In this document: in pieces, positions 20,599-61,450 of the stretch
Layout of the letters: each line of letters starts with the position of its first letter
Position numbering within the stretch: the stretch's first letter is position 1
Source: Patescibacteria group bacterium
Lineage (GTDB): Bacteria > Patescibacteriota > Patescibacteriia > PEXW01
DNA length: 64,000 nt
Direction: 5' to 3'
NCBI GenBank assembly: GCA_041671325.1
Contig: JBAZBR010000002.1
Location: forward strand, 9,978 to 73,977
Notes under the pieces: generated by a model
The model's input: the letters and a program-made list of their open reading frames with translations, nothing else
Database searches by the model: none
What the model was told of the DNA's origin: nothing
Program-made: the position numbers and the translations under genes

Positions 20599-20868
20599 TT
20601 AAATTTCGGATTTAGTAAAATATTCTATCAGCATGGTACGTATTGTCGTTTTACCTTTTGCTGTTTTGAAGTATTTTTCCCTTCGTAGTGCATCATATTT
20701 ATTGGCATAAGCTTCAAAAAAAATTAAATCAAATGGTATACGCGGTTTTGTGGACGGAACCTTGCCTGAATTGTGCTGAATGAGTCGGTTAAATACATTA
20801 TCCGTAAAACCGATATAAAGACGTTTATCGCGCTTGCTTTGTAAAATGTAAACATAGAAATATTTCAT
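20599..20868 (-). CDS. stand-alone GIY-YIG nuclease family protein (90 aa)
   Basis: MKYFYVYILQS...LYIGFTDNVFNRLIQHN GIY-YIG motif. The ORF-track version (to 21018) reads through the tRNA; the internal Met at 20868 was chosen as start. Confidence 0.7.
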   Translation of the reverse strand: MKYFYVYILQSKRDKRLYIGFTDNVFNRLIQHNSGKVPSTKPRIPFDLIFFEAYANKYDALRREKYFKTAKGKTTIRTMLIEYFTKSEI

Positions 20869-20905
20869 AACATTTATAGTCAATGCAATGCACTGGGTGG
20901 CGGAG

Positions 20906-20927
20906 CCATGCACCGTACGGTGCATGG
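20906..20927. repeat. 20-bp perfect palindrome CATGCACCGTACGGTGCATG fused to the CCA end of tRNA-Ser(GCT). A second copy at 23039-23058 is fused to the tRNA-Ser pseudo-copy.
   Basis: Identical 20-mer at both loci, each immediately 3' of ...CTCTCCGCCA. Confidence 0.6.
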
Positions 20928-21016
20928 CGGAGAGTAGAGGATTCGAACCTCTGCGGGACTTTTTAGATCCCCGCGGTTTAGCAAACCGCTGCCTTAAGCC
21001 GCTCGGCCAACTCTCC
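20926..21016 (-). tRNA. tRNA-Ser (anticodon GCT), type II with long variable arm, CCA encoded
   Basis: GGAGAGTTGGCCGAGCGG...anticodon loop TTGCTAA...GGTTCGAATCC...ACTCTCCGCCA. Cloverleaf folds manually. Confidence 0.8.
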
Positions 21017-21159
21017 ACGGATCATCATGAACTTCACCCTTCGCATCCTCGCATTTGCGAGTTTGCTTCGGGTTTCGTTCGTGTGCTCCTCTCCCCATTG
21101 ATACCAAAGGTATCAATGGGGACCCCTAAAATAAATATTACAAAAGATTCATCCAGAAG

Positions 21160-52903: not shown

Positions 52904-53039
52904 AATTTTTGAAAAGCAAGATTGCCGCGCTTCCTTGTAAGAGCGAGGTCGCTCGCAATGACCGATCTTTAATCAACCGTCTTTGCGAGTCCCGCAGCCG
53001 CGGCAGGGACGGGAAAGGAGGGAGAAAGTAAGGCAATGG

Positions 53040-53505
53040 TTATATTTATCCTCCTCTCCGCCTTTTAGGGGGAGAGGATGTCCCGAGCAAAGTCGAGGGA
53101 CAGGTGAGGTGGTAAGTATTATGAAACTGAAACCATTAACCATAAAAGCAAAGAGGCTTAGGCAAAGGCAAACTCCGCAAGAAGTAAAATTATGGTCAAG
53201 ACTTAAAAACAGACAATGCTCTGGCTATAAATTTAGGCGGCAAGTACATCTAGGCAAGTATATTGTTGATTTCTATTGTCCAGAGAAAAAATTTATTGTT
53301 GAAGTTGATGGGGGTCAGCATAGTCATGAACGATTTTCTAAGCGTGATTCATTTAGGAGTAATTATCTGAAAAACCAAGGATGCAAAGTTATCCGATTTT
53401 GGAACAATGATATTGATTCAAATTTAGAAGGTGTTTATCAAGTAATTCTTGATTTTCTAAGTTCCCCCTCACCTCTATCTCCTCTCCCGCGAGAGGAGAG
53501 GAGGA
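53040..53505 (+). mobile_element. DUF559 element 2, with a 5' palindromic module (53040-53120) and a 3' palindromic module (53464-53505)
   Basis: Same architecture as element 1. ggacaggtgaggtgg 5' and ccctcacc...ctcctctcccgcgagaggagagg 3'. Confidence 0.5.
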
Positions 53506-53516
53506 ATGAAAGGTAA
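53121..53516 (+). CDS. DUF559 domain protein, copy 2
   Basis: Start at ATG 53121 with AGGTGAGGTGG SD-like sequence. Conserved DUF559 motifs. Confidence 0.75.
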   Translation: MKLKPLTIKAKRLRQRQTPQEVKLWSRLKNRQCSGYKFRRQVHLGKYIVDFYCPEKKFIVEVDGGQHSHERFSKRDSFRSNYLKNQGCKVIRFWNNDIDSNLEGVYQVILDFLSSPSPLSPLPREERRNER

Positions 53517-53535: not shown

Positions 53536-54303
53536 ATGAACATAATTGCTTACATATTTATTTTTCTCCTCGGCCTCTGCATTGGCAGTTTTTTAAATGT
53601 GGTGATTTTGCGCTTGCCCAAGAAAAAGAAATTTTTGAAATTAAACCAAAGGTCAAAATGTCCAAAGTGCCGGCACGCTTTGCGTTTTTTGGATTTGGTT
53701 CCGCTTTTTAGTTTTCTATTTCTGAAATTCCGCTGCCGATATTGCCACAAAAAAATCAGCTGGCAATATCCTTTGGTGGAATTTTTAACCGCGCTGTTTT
53801 TTGCCTTAATTTTTTGGCAATACGGTTTGACTTGGGTAGCATTGATTGGCTTTATTGGCGCAGGGTTTTTAATGGCTTTAGCTTTTATTGACGGAAAATT
53901 CCAAATTGTCCCAGACAGCATAAGCCTGCCAGGAATAATTATAATTTTAGTATTGCAGCTTTTGACCAATTTTAAAGATTGGCAAAGCTTGCTTCTTGGC
54001 TTGCTACTTGGCTCAACCTGGTTTTTACTGCAGTGGGTGGTTTCCAAAGGCAAATGGGTGGGTAGCGGCGATATCCGCATTGGTGCTTTATTAGGAGTAT
54101 TCTTGGGTTTCTGGGGTACTGCCTTGGCGCTTTTCGCTTCCTATTTTATGGGCAGCCTCTGGGCAATATATTTGCTTTCCAGAGGCAAAGCCAAGTTAAA
54201 AAGCAAGATCCCCTTTGGCGTGTTTTTGGGGATTTTTGGCATTTTAGCCTTTATTTTTGGGCCTGAAGTGGTATCCTGGTATAAGGGGATTATCGGTTTG
54301 TAA
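53536..54303 (+). CDS. pilD: prepilin peptidase PilD (A24 family)
   Basis: N-terminal CxxC...CxxC zinc module. Multiple TM. Conserved Asp-containing motifs. Confidence 0.85.
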   Translation: MNIIAYIFIFLLGLCIGSFLNVVILRLPKKKKFLKLNQRSKCPKCRHALRFLDLVPLFSFLFLKFRCRYCHKKISWQYPLVEFLTALFFALIFWQYGLTWVALIGFIGAGFLMALAFIDGKFQIVPDSISLPGIIIILVLQLLTNFKDWQSLLLGLLLGSTWFLLQWVVSKGKWVGSGDIRIGALLGVFLGFWGTALALFASYFMGSLWAIYLLSRGKAKLKSKIPFGVFLGIFGILAFIFGPEVVSWYKGIIGL

Positions 54304-54340
54304 ATCCAGCACCACTTTTCAACAAAACATTAAAAAATTC

Positions 54341-55243
54341 ATGGCTAAATTGAAAAAAGGATTTTCAATCCTGGAAATATTAGTGACTATAGGCATCACT
54401 GCGCTCCTAATGGGCGTGGTCATTGGCAATTACCGCCGGGGCGGCGATGACAGTATTTTGGAAAAAGAAATCAACTTGCTTATGACCAGAGTTAGGCTGA
54501 CCCAGGAACAGACTGCCGGCGGGACAACCGGAAAATATTGCGAAAATCCAAATTATGGCAAAACTTGCAGTGTAGATTCGGATTGTCCTTCATCAACAAC
54601 TTGTTTGGAGGCTGATACGCCAAAAGGCGGTTATGCAATAGTTTTTAATTGTGACCCGAGTTATCAGTGGGGTTTGGATTATCCAAAAATGGACGTAATG
54701 GATGATGTAACCGAAACCAATACTACCCCTTATTTTATTTTTGGCGATAGGCTTTCCTGTAATTCTAATTGTTTTAATAATTTAAATTTTGATTGGTCTT
54801 ATATAGACTCTGATGGCCTGATAACTCTGATAAATTCTTCTCCTATGATAAACCCTCCTACCATAGGAGACACCCTGGTTAATACTTATGAGCTGGATAA
54901 TAAATTAGTGTTTAAAGATTTGCAGATAGTTTCCTCTAATTTAGAAATGTATTCTTGTAAATCAATTAATTTGTCAGATTTGAGAGGGAGGCCGGTTCCA
55001 GACCACGGTGTTGTTCCCGCGGAGTATCCCTTACAAGCGACAATCAGGTTTAAACCGCCAGACGGCAGGCAATTGGAAATTACTGATGGCGTTAGGACAC
55101 AAACACCTGGCGGAAATAATTGGCAGAAAGTAAGCGTAATGTTCGGCTTAAAAGACCGGAATACGGATTGCAAAATCGTGTCAATTAGCAAAGACGGATT
55201 TATTACTAAAGATAATGATCCGAATTGCAGTTTTGAGAGTTAA
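54341..55243 (+). CDS. minor pilin-like protein (MAKLKKG|FSILEILVTIGITAL)
   Basis: Class III signal at ATG 54341. The ORF track starts at 54257, upstream of the likely start. Confidence 0.75.
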   Translation: MAKLKKGFSILEILVTIGITALLMGVVIGNYRRGGDDSILEKEINLLMTRVRLTQEQTAGGTTGKYCENPNYGKTCSVDSDCPSSTTCLEADTPKGGYAIVFNCDPSYQWGLDYPKMDVMDDVTETNTTPYFIFGDRLSCNSNCFNNLNFDWSYIDSDGLITLINSSPMINPPTIGDTLVNTYELDNKLVFKDLQIVSSNLEMYSCKSINLSDLRGRPVPDHGVVPAEYPLQATIRFKPPDGRQLEITDGVRTQTPGGNNWQKVSVMFGLKDRNTDCKIVSISKDGFITKDNDPNCSFES

Positions 55244-55298: not shown

Positions 55299-55405
55299 AT
55301 CCAGCACCACTTTTCAATAATACGCTATAAATATCACTATGAATTTTGACCAGAAAAAAATCAATAACCAGCACGAAAGACCTTTTTTGAAAAGTGGTGC
55401 TGGAT
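55299..55405. repeat. perfect 19-bp inverted repeat (atccagcaccacttttcaa ... ttgaaaagtggtgctggat) flanking the start codon and leader-coding region of the minor pilin gene
   Basis: Exact reverse complements at 55299-55317 and 55387-55405. Further copies at 54304-54322, 57847-57863 and 57955-57974/57978-57997. Confidence 0.7.
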
Positions 55406-56343
55406 TTACCTTGATTGAAACCCTGGTAGCGATGGGGATTATGCTGGCTTTATTGTCCGTGATTTTGGCGAATTACCGGCGGGGCAATGATGACAGCGTC
55501 TTAAACCGGGAAACCGCAATGTTAATGTCTAATATCAGGTTAGCACAGGAAGAAACCGCGGCTGGCCAAATTTTACGTTTTTGCACTACTAATATTGGGC
55601 AAACCTGTAAAACCGATTCAGATTGTCCGACGGGCGATACCTGTAATCCAACCCAAGAAACTCCTAAAGGTGGATATGGGATTGTTTTAGGTTGCAAGAA
55701 TGGTACTGTTGTGGGTACGACGTTGCCGTGGATTGAGCATGGGGTGGATATCAGTAACCCGAATAATCCAAATGCTTATTTTTTATACGGTGATAACCTG
55801 AGCTGTGTTGGCTCAACAGCGTACAATTCTTGCTTTCCGATGAATCCTTTACTTTATAACCCCAATGGTCCGACTTCATATGACAGGAGAATTGGCAGCT
55901 GGCAAACTGGTGAGAATTATGGTGATACTTTGGAAAAAGAAGTAGTATTGAATGATAAAGTTAAGATTAAAGATTTTAAATTAACCAGGGGAACTGATTC
56001 AAACCTGACTTATTATACATGCGATGTATCGAATACTGGTCTTAGCGCAGATCATTATTCCCCTTGGAGCCTGTCCGGTGCTATTATTCCAGGAATTAAT
56101 ACTGTTGTTCCAGCAAATTATCCTTTGCAATTATATATCAATTTTTCTCCGCCTACTGGCAGACAAACATACATCTCTGATAATATTGAATATTTTTTGC
56201 CTGGCGGACCTAACTTGACAGACATCTGGCTTAAAGCGGAAATTATGCTGGGGGTAAAAAACCGTGATACTGACTGCCAGGTTGTTACTGTTACTAAAGA
56301 GGGCATGATCAGCCGGTCAGTCGATGCGGATTGTAAATTTTAG
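55339..56343 (+). CDS. minor pilin-like protein with long leader (MNFDQKKINNQHERPFLKSGAG|FTLIETLVAMGIM)
   Basis: Class III signal. Possible alternative TTG start at 55387 giving the leader MKSGAG. Confidence 0.75.
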   Translation: MNFDQKKINNQHERPFLKSGAGFTLIETLVAMGIMLALLSVILANYRRGNDDSVLNRETAMLMSNIRLAQEETAAGQILRFCTTNIGQTCKTDSDCPTGDTCNPTQETPKGGYGIVLGCKNGTVVGTTLPWIEHGVDISNPNNPNAYFLYGDNLSCVGSTAYNSCFPMNPLLYNPNGPTSYDRRIGSWQTGENYGDTLEKEVVLNDKVKIKDFKLTRGTDSNLTYYTCDVSNTGLSADHYSPWSLSGAIIPGINTVVPANYPLQLYINFSPPTGRQTYISDNIEYFLPGGPNLTDIWLKAEIMLGVKNRDTDCQVVTVTKEGMISRSVDADCKF

Positions 56344-56355
56344 GTTTTAATTAAA

Positions 56356-57456
56356 ATGAATTTTTTTGGCTTAAAAAAGAAAACCCATAAAGGCCAGACC
56401 CTCTTAGAAGCCATCATCGCCATTGGCGTGATTATGACTGGCGTAATTGGCTCTTTGGTTTTGGTTACCACGACCATAAAGCTTGGCCGGACAAACCAAG
56501 ACCGGGTCATTGCCCAAAATCTGGCCAGGGAAGGCATGGAATTGGTTTATAATCTCAGGAATTCCGCAACCCTAATGGGCATTGAATCGCCCTATATAAG
56601 CTGGGATTATTTTTTATACAAAAAAAAATCAAAAGCGGTCTTAGGCTATAAGGAATATTATGATATTGCCACTGGAGAAGGGACAGAATCTAGTCCTTGT
56701 GTTAACGCGCCAGATGTTAGTTCTAATGATAATAAACTGAATGACTGTGATGCAATAGTTATTGAAAAATACTTATTTGAACCACCAAATATTTTGCCTC
56801 CGATTTGTGAAGATTATCAATATCCCGTCCCAGGTACACCGCCCTATACAACAACTCCTTGTGATTTTAATGGCGATGACAAATTGAACATTACTGATGT
56901 GGTTTGGCTAATTAATTATATATATAGAAATTCTTACATTATGGCCTATGGCGGTTATCCGCAAATTTTGACAACTGTTGCCGGGAGCATTAAGCCTTAT
57001 GAAAAAATAGATTTTAATCAAGACAACAGCACTTTATTTTTTATCGGCACTGATCCGCTAGCAAATATTCCCGCAGCTTGGGAAGCCCCAACGGTTGATG
57101 ATCCTAACCTGATTGAAAAGAGAAGCCGGGTTTATAAATATAACAATACTTACACTCAAAATGTCCTTCCAGATACTACCCCTGGATTGGAAAAGACAAA
57201 ATTTTACCGCATGATAACCCTGCAATCTGTTTGCCGCGGAACACACAATGGTACTCCTGACACCACTGTTTTACTGCCAGTAGACTCAGTTCTCAATTGC
57301 TACGACTACGTGAGAACACAGGTTTGGAATGTTGCTGACGCTAACACCGTAAAAAAAGTCGGGATTTTAGCAAATGTTGAAGTTCGCTGGTCAACAGCCT
57401 TGAGTCCAACCAATGTCAAATACCAAGAATTTATTTACGATTGGATTAATTTTTAA
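56356..57456 (+). CDS. PilV-like minor pilin (leader ...KKTHKG|QTLLEAIIAIGV) carrying a dockerin-like Ca-binding repeat (DFNGDDKLNITDVVWLINYIY)
   Basis: PilV-type N-terminus. Dockerin type-I-like repeat. Confidence 0.6.
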   Translation: MNFFGLKKKTHKGQTLLEAIIAIGVIMTGVIGSLVLVTTTIKLGRTNQDRVIAQNLAREGMELVYNLRNSATLMGIESPYISWDYFLYKKKSKAVLGYKEYYDIATGEGTESSPCVNAPDVSSNDNKLNDCDAIVIEKYLFEPPNILPPICEDYQYPVPGTPPYTTTPCDFNGDDKLNITDVVWLINYIYRNSYIMAYGGYPQILTTVAGSIKPYEKIDFNQDNSTLFFIGTDPLANIPAAWEAPTVDDPNLIEKRSRVYKYNNTYTQNVLPDTTPGLEKTKFYRMITLQSVCRGTHNGTPDTTVLLPVDSVLNCYDYVRTQVWNVADANTVKKVGILANVEVRWSTALSPTNVKYQEFIYDWINF

Positions 57457-57494
57457 TCCCGCGCCAATTCATTTGAACGCTTAAACTGCCAACC

Positions 57495-57575
57495 ATGAAT
57501 TTTTACCGGCAAAAAATTGACAATCAACAAAAAAGACTTTCATTGAAAAGTGGTACGGGATTAATAAATGACTAG
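57495..57575 (+). pseudogene. decayed copy of the minor-pilin 5' module (MNFYRQKIDNQQKRLSLKSGTGLIND*), truncated after the leader
   Basis: Nucleotide similarity to 55339-55410 and 57886-57960. Stops after 26 codons. Confidence 0.45.
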
Positions 57576-57885
57576 ATTTGAAAAATGTATTTTGTCTATT
57601 TATTACGAAGCAAGAAAAATAAAGCAATTTACATTGGCTCCACCAATAATTTAAAATTGAGACTACGACAGCACAATAAAGGACTAGTGTTTTCAACAAA
57701 AAGATATATGCCTTGGGAATTAGTATATTATGAAGCATATAATAACGAAGGCCAAGCCCGTTTGCGGGAAAAGAGGCTTAAATACAATGGTAATGCTATT
57801 AGAGAATTAAAAAGAAGAGTTGGGTTGTGATAATTACATGGGTTTACCCAGCACCACTTTCCATAAAAATAATTAATAATAATTA
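57576..57885 (+). mobile_element. GIY-YIG nuclease gene inserted between tandem copies of the pilin 5' module
   Basis: Flanked by homologous leader-module copies at 57495-57575 and 57886-57960. Confidence 0.45.
57585..57830 (+). CDS. stand-alone GIY-YIG nuclease family protein (81 aa), paralogue of the 20599 gene
   Basis: MYFVYLLRSKKNKAIYIGSTNNLKLRLRQHN GIY-YIG motif. Confidence 0.7.
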   Translation: MYFVYLLRSKKNKAIYIGSTNNLKLRLRQHNKGLVFSTKRYMPWELVYYEAYNNEGQARLREKRLKYNGNAIRELKRRVGL

Positions 57886-57978
57886 ATGAGATTTTACTTG
57901 AAAAATATCCAAAATCACAAAAAAAGACTTTTTTTGAAAAAAAAGGTGGGATTTATCCAGCACCACTTTTCATTCCGA

Positions 57979-58743
57979 ATGAAAAGTGGTGCTGGATTCA
58001 CGCTTATTGAGGTCATTATTGCCATGGCGGTTTTTTCCGTTGCTATGGTTTTGGCAACCGCCACTTTTGTCTCTTTTGTCCAAAGCCAAAGAAGGACCAT
58101 TACCCAGCAGGAAATGCAAAATGATGCCCGCTCAGCCATTGAGGAAATCGCCCAGGTCTTAAGGGAAGGCGTGGTTGATTATGCTTATTATTCTACCAAT
58201 TTTACAGAACCAATTGAAAAAACCATACTTTTTGATTCTCTTGATGGCACGGGAAAAAAATGTTTGGCAATCCGGAGCGCTTTGAATGAATATTATTATT
58301 ATAAATTAGACGGCGGGGTAATAAAAAAATATTTTTCAGCTAGCCCTATCAGCACTTCTTGCGTTGGCGGCACGAACTGGTCGGTTGTAACACCAGAAAA
58401 TTTAACCATAACCAATTTCACTTTTTTAATCACCCCTTCCCAAAACCCATTTCAGGGTAAATCTTACCAAGCATGCGGAACCCCGGGGGCTCCGACTGCC
58501 TGCACCGAATGGGGGACTTATTGCAATGAAGATGGTAGTATCGATTGTGCTTACCAAAAAGGGACTTCCTGTTATTGCGTACCAAAAGTTTATGGTGATT
58601 TAATCCCTTTGCACCCAAAAGTCACTTTCAGTTTGACCGTATCCAGGAAAGCCAACCAGACCACGCTTTCAGAAACCTACCAAACCACCATAACCAGCCG
58701 GGTCTATAAGAATTTTGACCTTTTAAACCGCTATGCGCCTTAA
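57979..58743 (+). CDS. PilW-like minor pilin (MKSGAG|FTLIEVIIAMAVF). An alternative upstream start at 57886 would give a 41-aa leader.
   Basis: Class III signal. The start codon lies in the stem of a perfect 20-bp hairpin. Confidence 0.7.
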   Translation: MKSGAGFTLIEVIIAMAVFSVAMVLATATFVSFVQSQRRTITQQEMQNDARSAIEEIAQVLREGVVDYAYYSTNFTEPIEKTILFDSLDGTGKKCLAIRSALNEYYYYKLDGGVIKKYFSASPISTSCVGGTNWSVVTPENLTITNFTFLITPSQNPFQGKSYQACGTPGAPTACTEWGTYCNEDGSIDCAYQKGTSCYCVPKVYGDLIPLHPKVTFSLTVSRKANQTTLSETYQTTITSRVYKNFDLLNRYAP

Positions 58744-61002: not shown

Positions 61003-61450
61003 TTCCCTCTCCTCTGGCAGGAGAGGGAATCCCGCCAAATGGCGGGATGGGTGAGGAGGAAAACAATTATACATGAGAAAAATATTAACCAATAGAGCAA
61101 GGGTATTTCGAAAAAAACAAACTTCATCAGAGGCTATTTTGTGGCAAAATTTAAGAAATAAGAAACTATTAGGATATAAATTTTATCGGCAATACCCAAT
61201 TAATAACTATATTGTTGATTTTTGTTGTCCGATTAAACGGTTAATCATTGAAGTTGATGGTGGCGGTCATAATTATGACGAACAAAAAGCTAAAGATGAG
61301 ACCCGTGATATTTTTTTAAAAAAACAAAAATTTTATGTTTTAAGGTTTTGGAGTAACGATATTCATAAAAATTTATCCGGAGTAATGGAGACAATTTTTG
61401 ATTTTTTATCCCCCCTCTCCTTTGGTTCCTCCCCCGCATAAGGGGGGAGG
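61003..61450 (+). mobile_element. DUF559 element 3, with a 5' palindromic module (61003-61059) and a 3' palindromic module (61411-61450)
   Basis: ccctctcctctggcaggagaggg, cccgccaaatggcggg and gggtgaggagg at the 5' end. ccccctctcc...cccccgcataaggggggagg at the 3' end. Confidence 0.5.
61073..61441 (+). CDS. DUF559 domain protein, copy 3
   Basis: Conserved DUF559 motifs (YIVDFCCP, IEVDGGGH, RFWSND). Confidence 0.75.
   Translation: MRKILTNRARVFRKKQTSSEAILWQNLRNKKLLGYKFYRQYPINNYIVDFCCPIKRLIIEVDGGGHNYDEQKAKDETRDIFLKKQKFYVLRFWSNDIHKNLSGVMETIFDFLSPLSFGSSPA

Follow-up and report, generated by a model that had tools for sequence, protein, structure and literature searches.

The window that we analyzed is a 64,000-nucleotide (nt) stretch from a Patescibacteria group bacterium (GenBank assembly GCA_041671325.1, contig JBAZBR010000002.1, positions 9,978 to 73,977). 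It includes a Patescibacterium type IV pilus locus whose operon encodes a prepilin peptidase, then four pilins, and then a PilX-like protein. (Relatives carry the names Kerfeldbacteria or Parcubacteria.) Between the genes for the third and fourth pilins lies a small gene for a GIY-YIG nuclease. An earlier note on this DNA had proposed that the nuclease gene was inserted into the 5' module of a minor pilin gene, which left duplicated copies of the leader. What the earlier note missed is that every copy of the module is preceded by an inverted sequence, which we will call arm L. So, the modules are hairpin units, in which arm L is followed after about 20 nt by an ATG with a leader open reading frame (ORF) and then by arm R. 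We number the units in the window U1 to U5. The features of the site are as follows, with an arrow between the leader and the mature pilin:

53536-54303, + strand: pilD, prepilin peptidase, gene 1 of the operon (PF06750, E = 3.6e-34; PF01478, E = 1.6e-11)
54304-54321, no strand: U1, an orphan arm L (ATCCAGCACCACTTTTCA) without a partner arm R; it abuts the stop codon of pilD
54341-55243, + strand: pilin1, a minor pilin with the short leader MAKLKKG↓F (N_methyl motif, PF07963)
55299-55405, + strand: U2, an intact hairpin unit that lacks a nuclease gene (arm L at 55299-55316, ATG at 55339, arm R at 55388-55405, which codes for LKSGAG)
55339-56343, + strand: pilin2, with a leader of 22 amino acids (aa), MNFDQKKINNQHERPFLKSGAG↓FTLIE
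56356-57456, + strand: pilin3, with a dockerin-like repeat; its stop codon abuts U3
57455-57575, + strand: U3, a decayed unit 5' of the nuclease gene (remnant of arm L at ~57456-57471, remnant of arm R at 57544-57562)
57495-57575, + strand: the orphan leader ORF in U3 (MNFYRQKIDNQQKRLSLKSGTGLIND), which ends in a stop
57585-57830, + strand: the gene for a single-domain GIY-YIG nuclease, 246 bases, 81 aa (PF01541)
57840-57954, + strand: U4, the unit 3' of the nuclease gene (ATG at 57886; core of arm L at 57848-57861 with 1 mismatch); it begins with GGGTTTAC (57840-57847) and ends with a decayed arm R, TTGAAAAAAAAGGTGGGATTT (57934-57954)
57955-57997, no strand: U5, a perfect palindrome (arms at 57955-57975 and 57977-57997, 21+21 nt, 100% complementary)
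57886-58743, + strand: the pilin4 ORF, with a 36-aa leader; the alternative start at 57979 gives MKSGAG↓FTLIE

The order at the site is the stop codon of pilin3, decayed U3, the nuclease gene, U4, the solo hairpin U5, and the mature part of pilin4. Pilin4 matches PF07963 above the curated cut-off (E = 5.9e-7). Pilin1 and pilin2 fall just under that cut-off (~1e-3), and both have G↓F(T/S)(L/I)(I/L)E.

The earlier note had recognized an intact module at 55339, a decayed copy at 57495-57575 that ends in a stop, and a second degenerate copy downstream of the nuclease gene. Formal alignment gave significant similarity for all of them. The intact module (55339-55406, MNFDQKKINNQHERPFLKSGAG↓FTLIE) is the leader of U2. 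Using blastn within the 64-kb window, it is 77% identical to the U3 copy over 71 nt (E = 3.9e-11) and 72% identical to the second copy (57842-57954) over 101 nt (E = 1.7e-9). The copies that flank the nuclease gene, in U3 and U4, are 76% identical to each other over 55 nt (E = 3e-6), and the whole U3 unit (57455-57562) was aligned by nhmmer (E = 6.4e-9).

The 3' end of the module, TGAAAAGTGGTGCTGGAT, codes for LKSGAG, and its reverse complement, ATCCAGCACCACTTTTCA, recurs just 5' of the modules. We found the inverted copies at 54304, 55299, 57846 (with one mismatch), and 57955, with a remnant near 57456. The arms are CCAGCACCACTTTT for L and AAAAGTGGTGCTGG for R. The latter is a 14-nt core, which we found 7 times in the window with up to 2 mismatches, versus 0.69 expected; 0 of 100 shuffled sequences reached 7. 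All 7 matches are in the pilin locus, and 4 of them are inverted (54306, 55301, 57848, and 57957). Chance resemblance, or slippage duplication of an A-rich leader without any link to the nuclease, might seem to explain these repeats, as the DNA here is rich in A and T, and stretches of low complexity inflate similarity. But the E values (4e-11 to 3e-6), the shuffled controls, and the recurrence of the layout in independent genomes (see below) refute this explanation, and we consider it almost certainly wrong.

We folded the units as single-stranded DNA (ssDNA) and computed folding energies and z-scores. The arms of U2 are 22 nt long, 95% complementary, and 63 nt apart, and U2 folds with -20 kcal/mol (z = -5.6). 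U5, which lies 125 nt 3' of the nuclease gene, is also an intact hairpin (-22.5 kcal/mol, z = -11.4). The hairpins of U3 (z = -1.5) and U4 (z = -0.7) have been lost. Across lineages, 46 positions of the arms were compensated and 36 were uncompensated.

U5 adds 45 nt in frame, or exactly 15 codons (IQHHFSFRMKSGAG), which leaves the ORF of pilin4 open from 57886 onward. The earlier note had called 57979 the functional start. There is an ATG at 57979, and one source (P0001) annotates this start, while other gene calls begin at 57886. Because this ATG is inside the hairpin stem of U5 and the ORF is open from 57886, its role as the functional start is uncertain.

The nuclease itself belongs to the GIY-YIG family, as the earlier note had said: residues 1-71 match PF01541 (E = 1.7e-18; 67.1 bits versus a cut-off of 22.6), and this domain fills the 81-aa protein. 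Y5 (of the GIY motif), Y16 and G18 (of the YIG motif), R26, H30, and the metal-binding E62 are all present and correspond to invariant or nearly invariant columns in an alignment of 35 sequences. The closest solved structures are UPF0213 protein BH0048 (E = 2.7e-8) and SLX1. A match to TIGR01453 spans only residues 2-34 (27 bits versus a cut-off of 56), and we found no specific NCBIfam model for the single-domain GIY-YIG family.

There are thousands of single-domain GIY-YIG proteins, which were uncharacterized until the Ssn nucleases were studied in 2025 (Chenal et al. 2025, PMC11893778). The Ssn nucleases, of ~90-100 aa and without a DNA-binding domain, cut only ssDNA, on one strand, beside hairpin repeats that flank their own genes; different clades of nucleases pair with different hairpins, and each clade may have its own repeat (PMC11893778). 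To compare the window's nuclease to proteins of this kind, we collected a family of ~95-aa single-domain proteins from a search that was seeded with a consensus; this yielded thousands of proteins. Using hhalign, the family of the window's nuclease matched the ~95-aa family with 99.4% probability (E = 5e-22; 45% identity over 73 columns). One member of the ~95-aa family (in locus L090) is flanked by CGTCATTCCCGTGAAAACGGGAATCCAG, which is near the published consensus for the NTS repeat (PMC11893778). The window's nuclease lacks the C-terminal segment KKW.R.WK..LIE..NP.W.DL, and the arms in the pilin locus do not match the NTS/SRM consensus (CGTCATTCCCGCG..CGCGGGAATC). Judging from these profile comparisons, the Patescibacterial nucleases are likely to be of the Ssn type (cd10448). 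As a single-domain enzyme, it differs from the classical homing endonucleases, which join an N-terminal catalytic domain through a linker to a C-terminal DNA-binding domain. In maps of the family, hairpin units flank the nuclease gene on both sides; in the window both are present but decayed.

If the nuclease gene was inserted, then some relatives might lack it. We found orthologs of pilin4 in syntenic loci, with 45-62% identity: L003-L006 (58%), L007 (61%), and L008 (45%). In all of these loci, which stand for three related lineages, the nuclease gene is absent between pilin3 and pilin4. These are the empty-site alleles on which the earlier note's proposal depended. Instead of the nuclease gene, the site contains one hairpin unit (L003), two units in tandem (L007), or one unit with a shorter loop (L008). 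The C-terminus of pilin3, which ends in YQEFIYDWINF, is kept in both L003 and L007.

Homologous cassettes are present at other sites in the same operons. L003 has a cassette between pilD and pilin1, whose nuclease gene has a stop at codon 3. L007 has an intact cassette between pilin1 and pilin2 as well as a frameshifted one between pilin2 and pilin3. Each of these cassettes lies between two units, with a unit-to-unit period of 383-391 nt. The four cassettes (the window's, the one in L003, and the two in L007) align end to end, including the non-coding junctions, with a mean column identity of 74%. The earlier note's picture of a nuclease gene between two copies of its target, inserted by homing or some other kind of recombination, is supported: the decayed copies align significantly, the site is empty in relatives (so neither of the note's two refuting conditions held), and the layout recurs at three other pilin paralogs. 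Homing itself is the inferred mechanism.

Pilin1 of L003 is preceded by a unit, the GIY-YIG pseudogene, and another unit, and it has a long SGAG leader. In the window, the orphan arm U1 right after the stop codon of pilD, together with the short leader of pilin1 (54304-54375), suggests a deletion of ~48 nt or more, with the loss of arm R. By its sequence, the window's pilin1 looks like a deletion derivative of the state in L003.

To see if the association of the nuclease with the arms is general, we searched for homologs. There were over 140 close homologs (50-76% identity), mostly of 81-83 aa and many on short contigs, and the matches with names were nearly all from the ultra-small Patescibacteria. 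We took eighty genomic loci for this survey. Of the 33 loci with a nuclease of at least 57% identity to the window's, 23 have an arm motif within 200 nt of the nuclease gene, among them all 21 loci from L009 to L029. Near the gene there are 62 motif matches per 13.2 kb, versus 49 per 125 kb in the rest of the same loci, so the density is about 12-fold higher there. Also, in about 20 of the 27 closest loci, a pilin that starts with ...(K/R)SGAG↓FT(L)(I/V)E is encoded 10-160 nt downstream.

The surveyed loci have two main layouts. In layout A, arm L lies directly 5' of the nuclease gene and arm R lies shortly 3' of it. In layout B, the nuclease gene has a complete hairpin unit on either side, and the window belongs to this type. 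With layout A, the original start of the pilin is often visible, abutting arm L: MVRRGF (L032), MRGF (L021), MITQRGF (L012), or MGEKGF (L023). A substitute ATG and leader are then found between the nuclease gene and arm R, such as MKSKKRHSSRSGAG↓FTLTE (L032) or MRLGISQSGAG↓FSMTE (L021).

Arm-flanked homologs of the nuclease were also found in genes that have nothing to do with pili. In L028 (~2400-2800), an RHS-repeat gene is split at NRRFT↓GHELDEE (the arrow marks the split). In L036 (~2400-2800), a 23S rRNA gene contains a homolog between arms of the same kind. In L047 (~2240-2600), the N-terminus of an SDR epimerase was hit (MKKVLVTGGAGF), and arm L matches the GGAGF codons in the downstream copy of the epimerase gene's own sequence. 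(The epimerase's N-terminus in L047 is MKKVLVTGGAGFIGS, and there is an orphan, older copy upstream.)

Some of the more distant homologs are near tRNA genes, which the earlier note had suggested as a further conserved target. Of the 60 more distant loci that we scanned, 9 have a tRNA gene, on the same strand, whose start is 5-60 nt past the nuclease gene. The tRNAs are for Trp (L048, L049, and L076), Ile (L041, L061, and L069), Cys (L067 and L075), or Arg (L080). L048 and L076 each have, 5' of the nuclease gene, a second copy of the first 37-38 nt of the tRNA, which reaches as far as the anticodon loop.

Short sequences recur beside the arms. In most arm pairs, TT(T/C)A(C/T) is found 5' of arm L, and (G/A)TT(T/C)A(C/T) is found 3' of arm R. 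The motif overlaps the self-complementary sequence GGGT.TT.ACCC, and 12 arm pairs have an exact 6-nt direct repeat. The units 5' of the nuclease gene (window 57458-57568; L003 728-835; L022 2434-2480) have flanking direct repeats of TTAAT, TAAAT, or ATAAAT instead of TTTAC. These flanks suggest a second type of insertion site, at stop codons.

These flanks bring to mind a true transposon: an arm-bounded unit of ~0.3 kb, with the GIY-YIG protein as its sole enzyme, which would insert beside TT(T/C)A(C/T) in the "peel and paste" manner of IS200/IS605. Besides the flanking motifs and the 6-nt repeats, this would fit the insertions in unrelated genes, which share only a GG.TTTAC-like sequence, and the authors of the Ssn study called the NTS-ssnA-NTS arrangement insertion-sequence-like (PMC11893778). 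However, the self-complementarity of GGGT.TT.ACCC means that the length of a "target duplication" cannot be defined. Also, the duplicated 5' modules of genes (36-105 nt in L047, L011, and the window) look like the products of recombination rather than short duplications, and we did not see identical copies within a genome. Finally, GIY-YIG enzymes hydrolyze DNA without a covalent intermediate, so they cannot reseal it. Overall, we consider a true transposon to be quite unlikely.

We also asked if the arms are associated with pilins in general. In the surveyed loci, 29 of 32 pilins with xGAG↓F have an arm L upstream (up to 4 mismatches out of 16), while the scores of pilins with ordinary leaders resemble those of shuffled controls. 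As an unselected control, we used 106 pilin sites in 52 metagenome loci. None of the 106 sites has SGAG. An inverted partner with up to 2 mismatches out of 16 was found at only 2 of the 106; three more scored 4, and the rest scored 5-9. The two partnered sites (L102, ~700-850; L109, ~360-510) are solo hairpins of a KGEG variant (CCTTCACCTTTTT / AAAAAGGTGAAGG). They are inserted in frame in the pilin leader and are exactly 36 nt, with no nuclease gene nearby. (We also scanned metagenomes for orthologs with the pilin4 alignment, but this was swamped by the generic GFTLIEVI pattern and returned no orthologs.)

Given this distribution, the ...SGAG leader, which corresponds to arm R, probably derives from the element rather than being a native pilin target. 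The earlier note had taken the conserved N-terminal coding sequence of the pilin as the target; the insertion is there, while the SGAG leader itself probably came with the element. The simplest reading of the units that lack a nuclease gene, such as U2, is that they are remnants which were kept because they now supply the start of the gene.

If the inverted repeats are found at the starts of pilin genes, they might be regulators that act at the RNA level, on the translation or stability of the pilin cistrons, and the nuclease gene might be an unrelated passenger. For each pilin, the start codon and the leader do lie enclosed by a stem, the arms covary, and the units are at the cistron boundaries of a single operon. 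However, an Rfam scan gave only sub-threshold matches to generic hairpins and no family. In the RHS, epimerase, and 23S rRNA genes, too, the nuclease gene lies between these arms, and the arm motif tracks the nuclease clade instead of pilins generally (2 of 106 unselected sites). The presence of the arms with the nuclease clade in non-pilin genes and their absence from unselected pilins weaken this explanation, and we consider it very unlikely.

We think it reasonably probable that this segment represents an Ssn-type selfish element: a gene for a single-domain GIY-YIG nuclease, together with hairpins that it probably recognizes, located at the junction between the leader and the mature part of a pilin. 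This reading draws on what we observed: the anatomy of the site, the empty and occupied sites, the pseudogenes, the orphan starts with substitute leaders, the link between the arms and the nuclease clade, and the insertions in unrelated genes. By analogy to the Ssn enzymes, the nuclease would nick or cut at the hairpin or at a GG↓TTTAC target, most likely on ssDNA. Host recombination would then copy the element from an occupied site, which would give a homing-like spread among the 5' ends of paralogous and orthologous pilin genes. The element, or a unit derived from it, would bring along an ATG and a leader ORF, which ends in arm R with the codons for K-S-G-A-G. Since the supplied leader is in frame and is removed by prepilin peptidase, the mature pilin is left untouched, and this may be why in-frame hairpins and substitute leaders are tolerated. 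Later degeneration and deletion would leave units without a nuclease gene (U2) and orphan arms (U1). The decayed arms beside the nuclease gene in the window may reflect escape from self-cutting. As for the origin of arm L, snap-back synthesis would fit both the GGGT.TT.ACCC junction and L047; tandem insertion would explain the junction equally well.

Several observations weigh against a selfish element. The cassettes share just 68-74% nucleotide identity, including the two in the same genome. This implies that the insertions are old, and we saw no recent movement. We did not find an empty site in the same strain: all of the contigs that have pilin3 or the nuclease share the layout. No single insertion model explains both layouts A and B. 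A hydrolytic nuclease of 81 aa is unable to join DNA, and its spread would have to depend on repair by the host. Units without the nuclease keep arms of perfect complementarity, which could mean that the host makes use of the hairpin. And the link to Ssn consists of profile similarity and one sampled locus.

The preserved arms raise another explanation, which is that the system was domesticated by the host. The nuclease and the hairpins would control recombination or transformation at pilin genes, as proposed for SsnA and NTS in Neisseria. For instance, ssDNA, whether incoming or replicating, could be cut exactly at the 5' borders of pilin genes, and each pilin cassette could then be exchanged, or protected, as a module. 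Patescibacteria probably depend on their pili to take up DNA, and the window's hairpins are confined to the pilin operon. Also, the Ssn/NTS system modulates transformation, and NTS repeats cluster by genes for surface proteins (PMC11893778). In contrast, the nuclease genes include pseudogenes in L003 and L007, their position varies among pilin paralogs, an RHS gene is disrupted, copies are found in rRNA and at tRNA genes, and both of the units that flank the window's nuclease gene are decayed. Because of the pseudogenes, the shifting positions, the disruptive insertions, and the decayed units, a parasite fits better than a maintained host function, and we consider domestication to be unlikely.

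A bolder version of the selfish element can be stated. In this version, the 81-aa protein would be the sole protein of an autonomous, hairpin-bounded mobile element of ~0.3 kb, which would insert at GG↓TTTAC and would repair its target by supplying a start codon and leader, so that SGAG↓F is the fossil of an insertion. Sister elements would act alike at the 5' halves of tRNAs, in 23S rRNA, and at N-termini with the Rossmann motif GxGxxG. We consider this version doubtful. If it is true, the element would be among the smallest known, it would be the first in-genome evidence that nucleases of the Ssn type are the enzymes of mobile elements, and it could mark the borders of pilin cassettes that are exchanged by transformation.

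The element is probably a very small and little-described kind of mobile element. Like the Ssn family (cd10448), it has a single domain of under 100 aa and hairpin inverted repeats of 20-50 nt that flank the gene, in an insertion-sequence-like layout. The window's protein, at 81 aa, is shorter than the 94-aa SsnA. The sequence of its arms is unrelated to NTS, and its hairpins are within the 5' ends of coding sequences, with arm R coding for the KSGAG of the prepilin leader. NTS repeats of N. meningitidis are rarely (2%) inside genes, and that the NTS-ssnA-NTS layout is a mobile element was only hypothesized in the Ssn study (PMC11893778). Our comparisons go beyond that work. Orthologous and paralogous sites differ in whether they have the nuclease, and this variation, along with the orphaned starts, is direct comparative evidence of insertion; together with the pseudogenes and the insertions in unrelated genes, it supports the mobile-element idea. 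The 81-aa nuclease and the 43-nt palindrome are also a defined pair whose candidate specificity is unlike that of the known Ssn enzymes.

As with the Seg proteins of phage T4 and I-TevI, which are free-standing and intron-borne GIY-YIG homing endonucleases, the nuclease gene is in or next to highly conserved sequence, there are empty alleles, and there seems to be a cycle of gain, degeneration, and loss. But those enzymes have ~200-250 aa with a separate DNA-binding domain, while the window's enzyme is a bare catalytic domain, and they have neither hairpin arms nor a duplication of the target's 5' module. IS200/IS605 and REP/RAYT systems are similar in their dependence on hairpins, in that solo hairpins outnumber the enzyme's gene, and, as proposed for the window's element, in acting on ssDNA and inserting at a short motif (IS608 inserts beside TTAC). 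In contrast, their enzyme is a Y1 HUH transposase, and the window's element encodes only the GIY-YIG ORF.

Rickettsia palindromic elements are in-frame palindromic insertions in ORFs. The solo hairpins likewise add residues in frame (45 nt in the window; 36 nt in L102 and L109), but these residues are in a leader peptide that is cleaved, and the repeat goes together with a nuclease gene. Some integrative elements carry a replacement for the end of the tRNA gene that they use for integration. The pilin element also has a substitute copy of the displaced part of the gene, which keeps the target functional, but it is the 5' end of a protein-coding gene (the start and the leader) that is replaced, and there is no integrase. 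Being located in a cleaved leader peptide, with a substitute start and leader, is an unusual way for the element to stay harmless, and it would explain the odd but widespread ...SGAG↓F signature and the long leaders of Patescibacterial pilins. A study of rRNA insertions in the candidate phyla radiation reported GIY-YIG ORFs in non-intron insertions and judged them to be outside of homing (PMC11270868). These insertions are from the same phyla, and L036 has a homolog in 23S rRNA with arms of the same kind around it; the pilin targets, tRNA targets, and arms are not described there. In our literature searches, we did not find a description of GIY-YIG genes at pilin leaders.

The window contains a second gene of this type. 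At 20599-20868, on the - strand, is a paralogous single-domain GIY-YIG gene (89 aa; 49% identity over 65 aa, E = 5e-21). As the earlier note had said, it is beside tRNA-Ser(gct) (20925-21016, - strand), at a distance of 56 nt. A perfect 12+12 palindrome (GCCATGCACCGT/ACGGTGCATGGC; 20905-20928, no strand) overlaps the 3' GCCA of this tRNA. After the palindrome there is a second TCCGCCA and then the paralogous gene. The core of the palindrome's arm, GGTGCATGG, resembles the core of the pilin arm, GGTGCTGG. Another perfect palindrome, of 14+14 nt (TCCCCATTGATACC / GGTATCAATGGGGA), is at 21092-21122, 5' of the tRNA.

We considered two other ways to account for the repeats in the pilin locus. Inversion of DNA between the arms, as in a shufflon, would split the body of the pilin from its start codon, and there is no recombinase in the operon; we rejected this from the anatomy alone. 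A Y1 (IS200/RAYT-like) transposase could mobilize the units, and relatives have such a gene 3 kb from the operon. But its hairpins are different, and a search of the window with the relatives' Y1 protein found nothing (tblastn, best E = 0.76), so we rejected this as well.

The pilus operon has genes from the DUF559 family (with a Vsr-like endonuclease fold) on both sides, at 52983-53516 and 61073-61441. In L003 and L007, the position of the second DUF559 gene has instead the Y1 transposase-like gene, with its own, different hairpins. This implies that small nuclease or transposase genes turn over at that spot. Finally, the dockerin-type repeat of pilin3 (PF00404, E = 4.6e-8) is unusual in a minor pilin.

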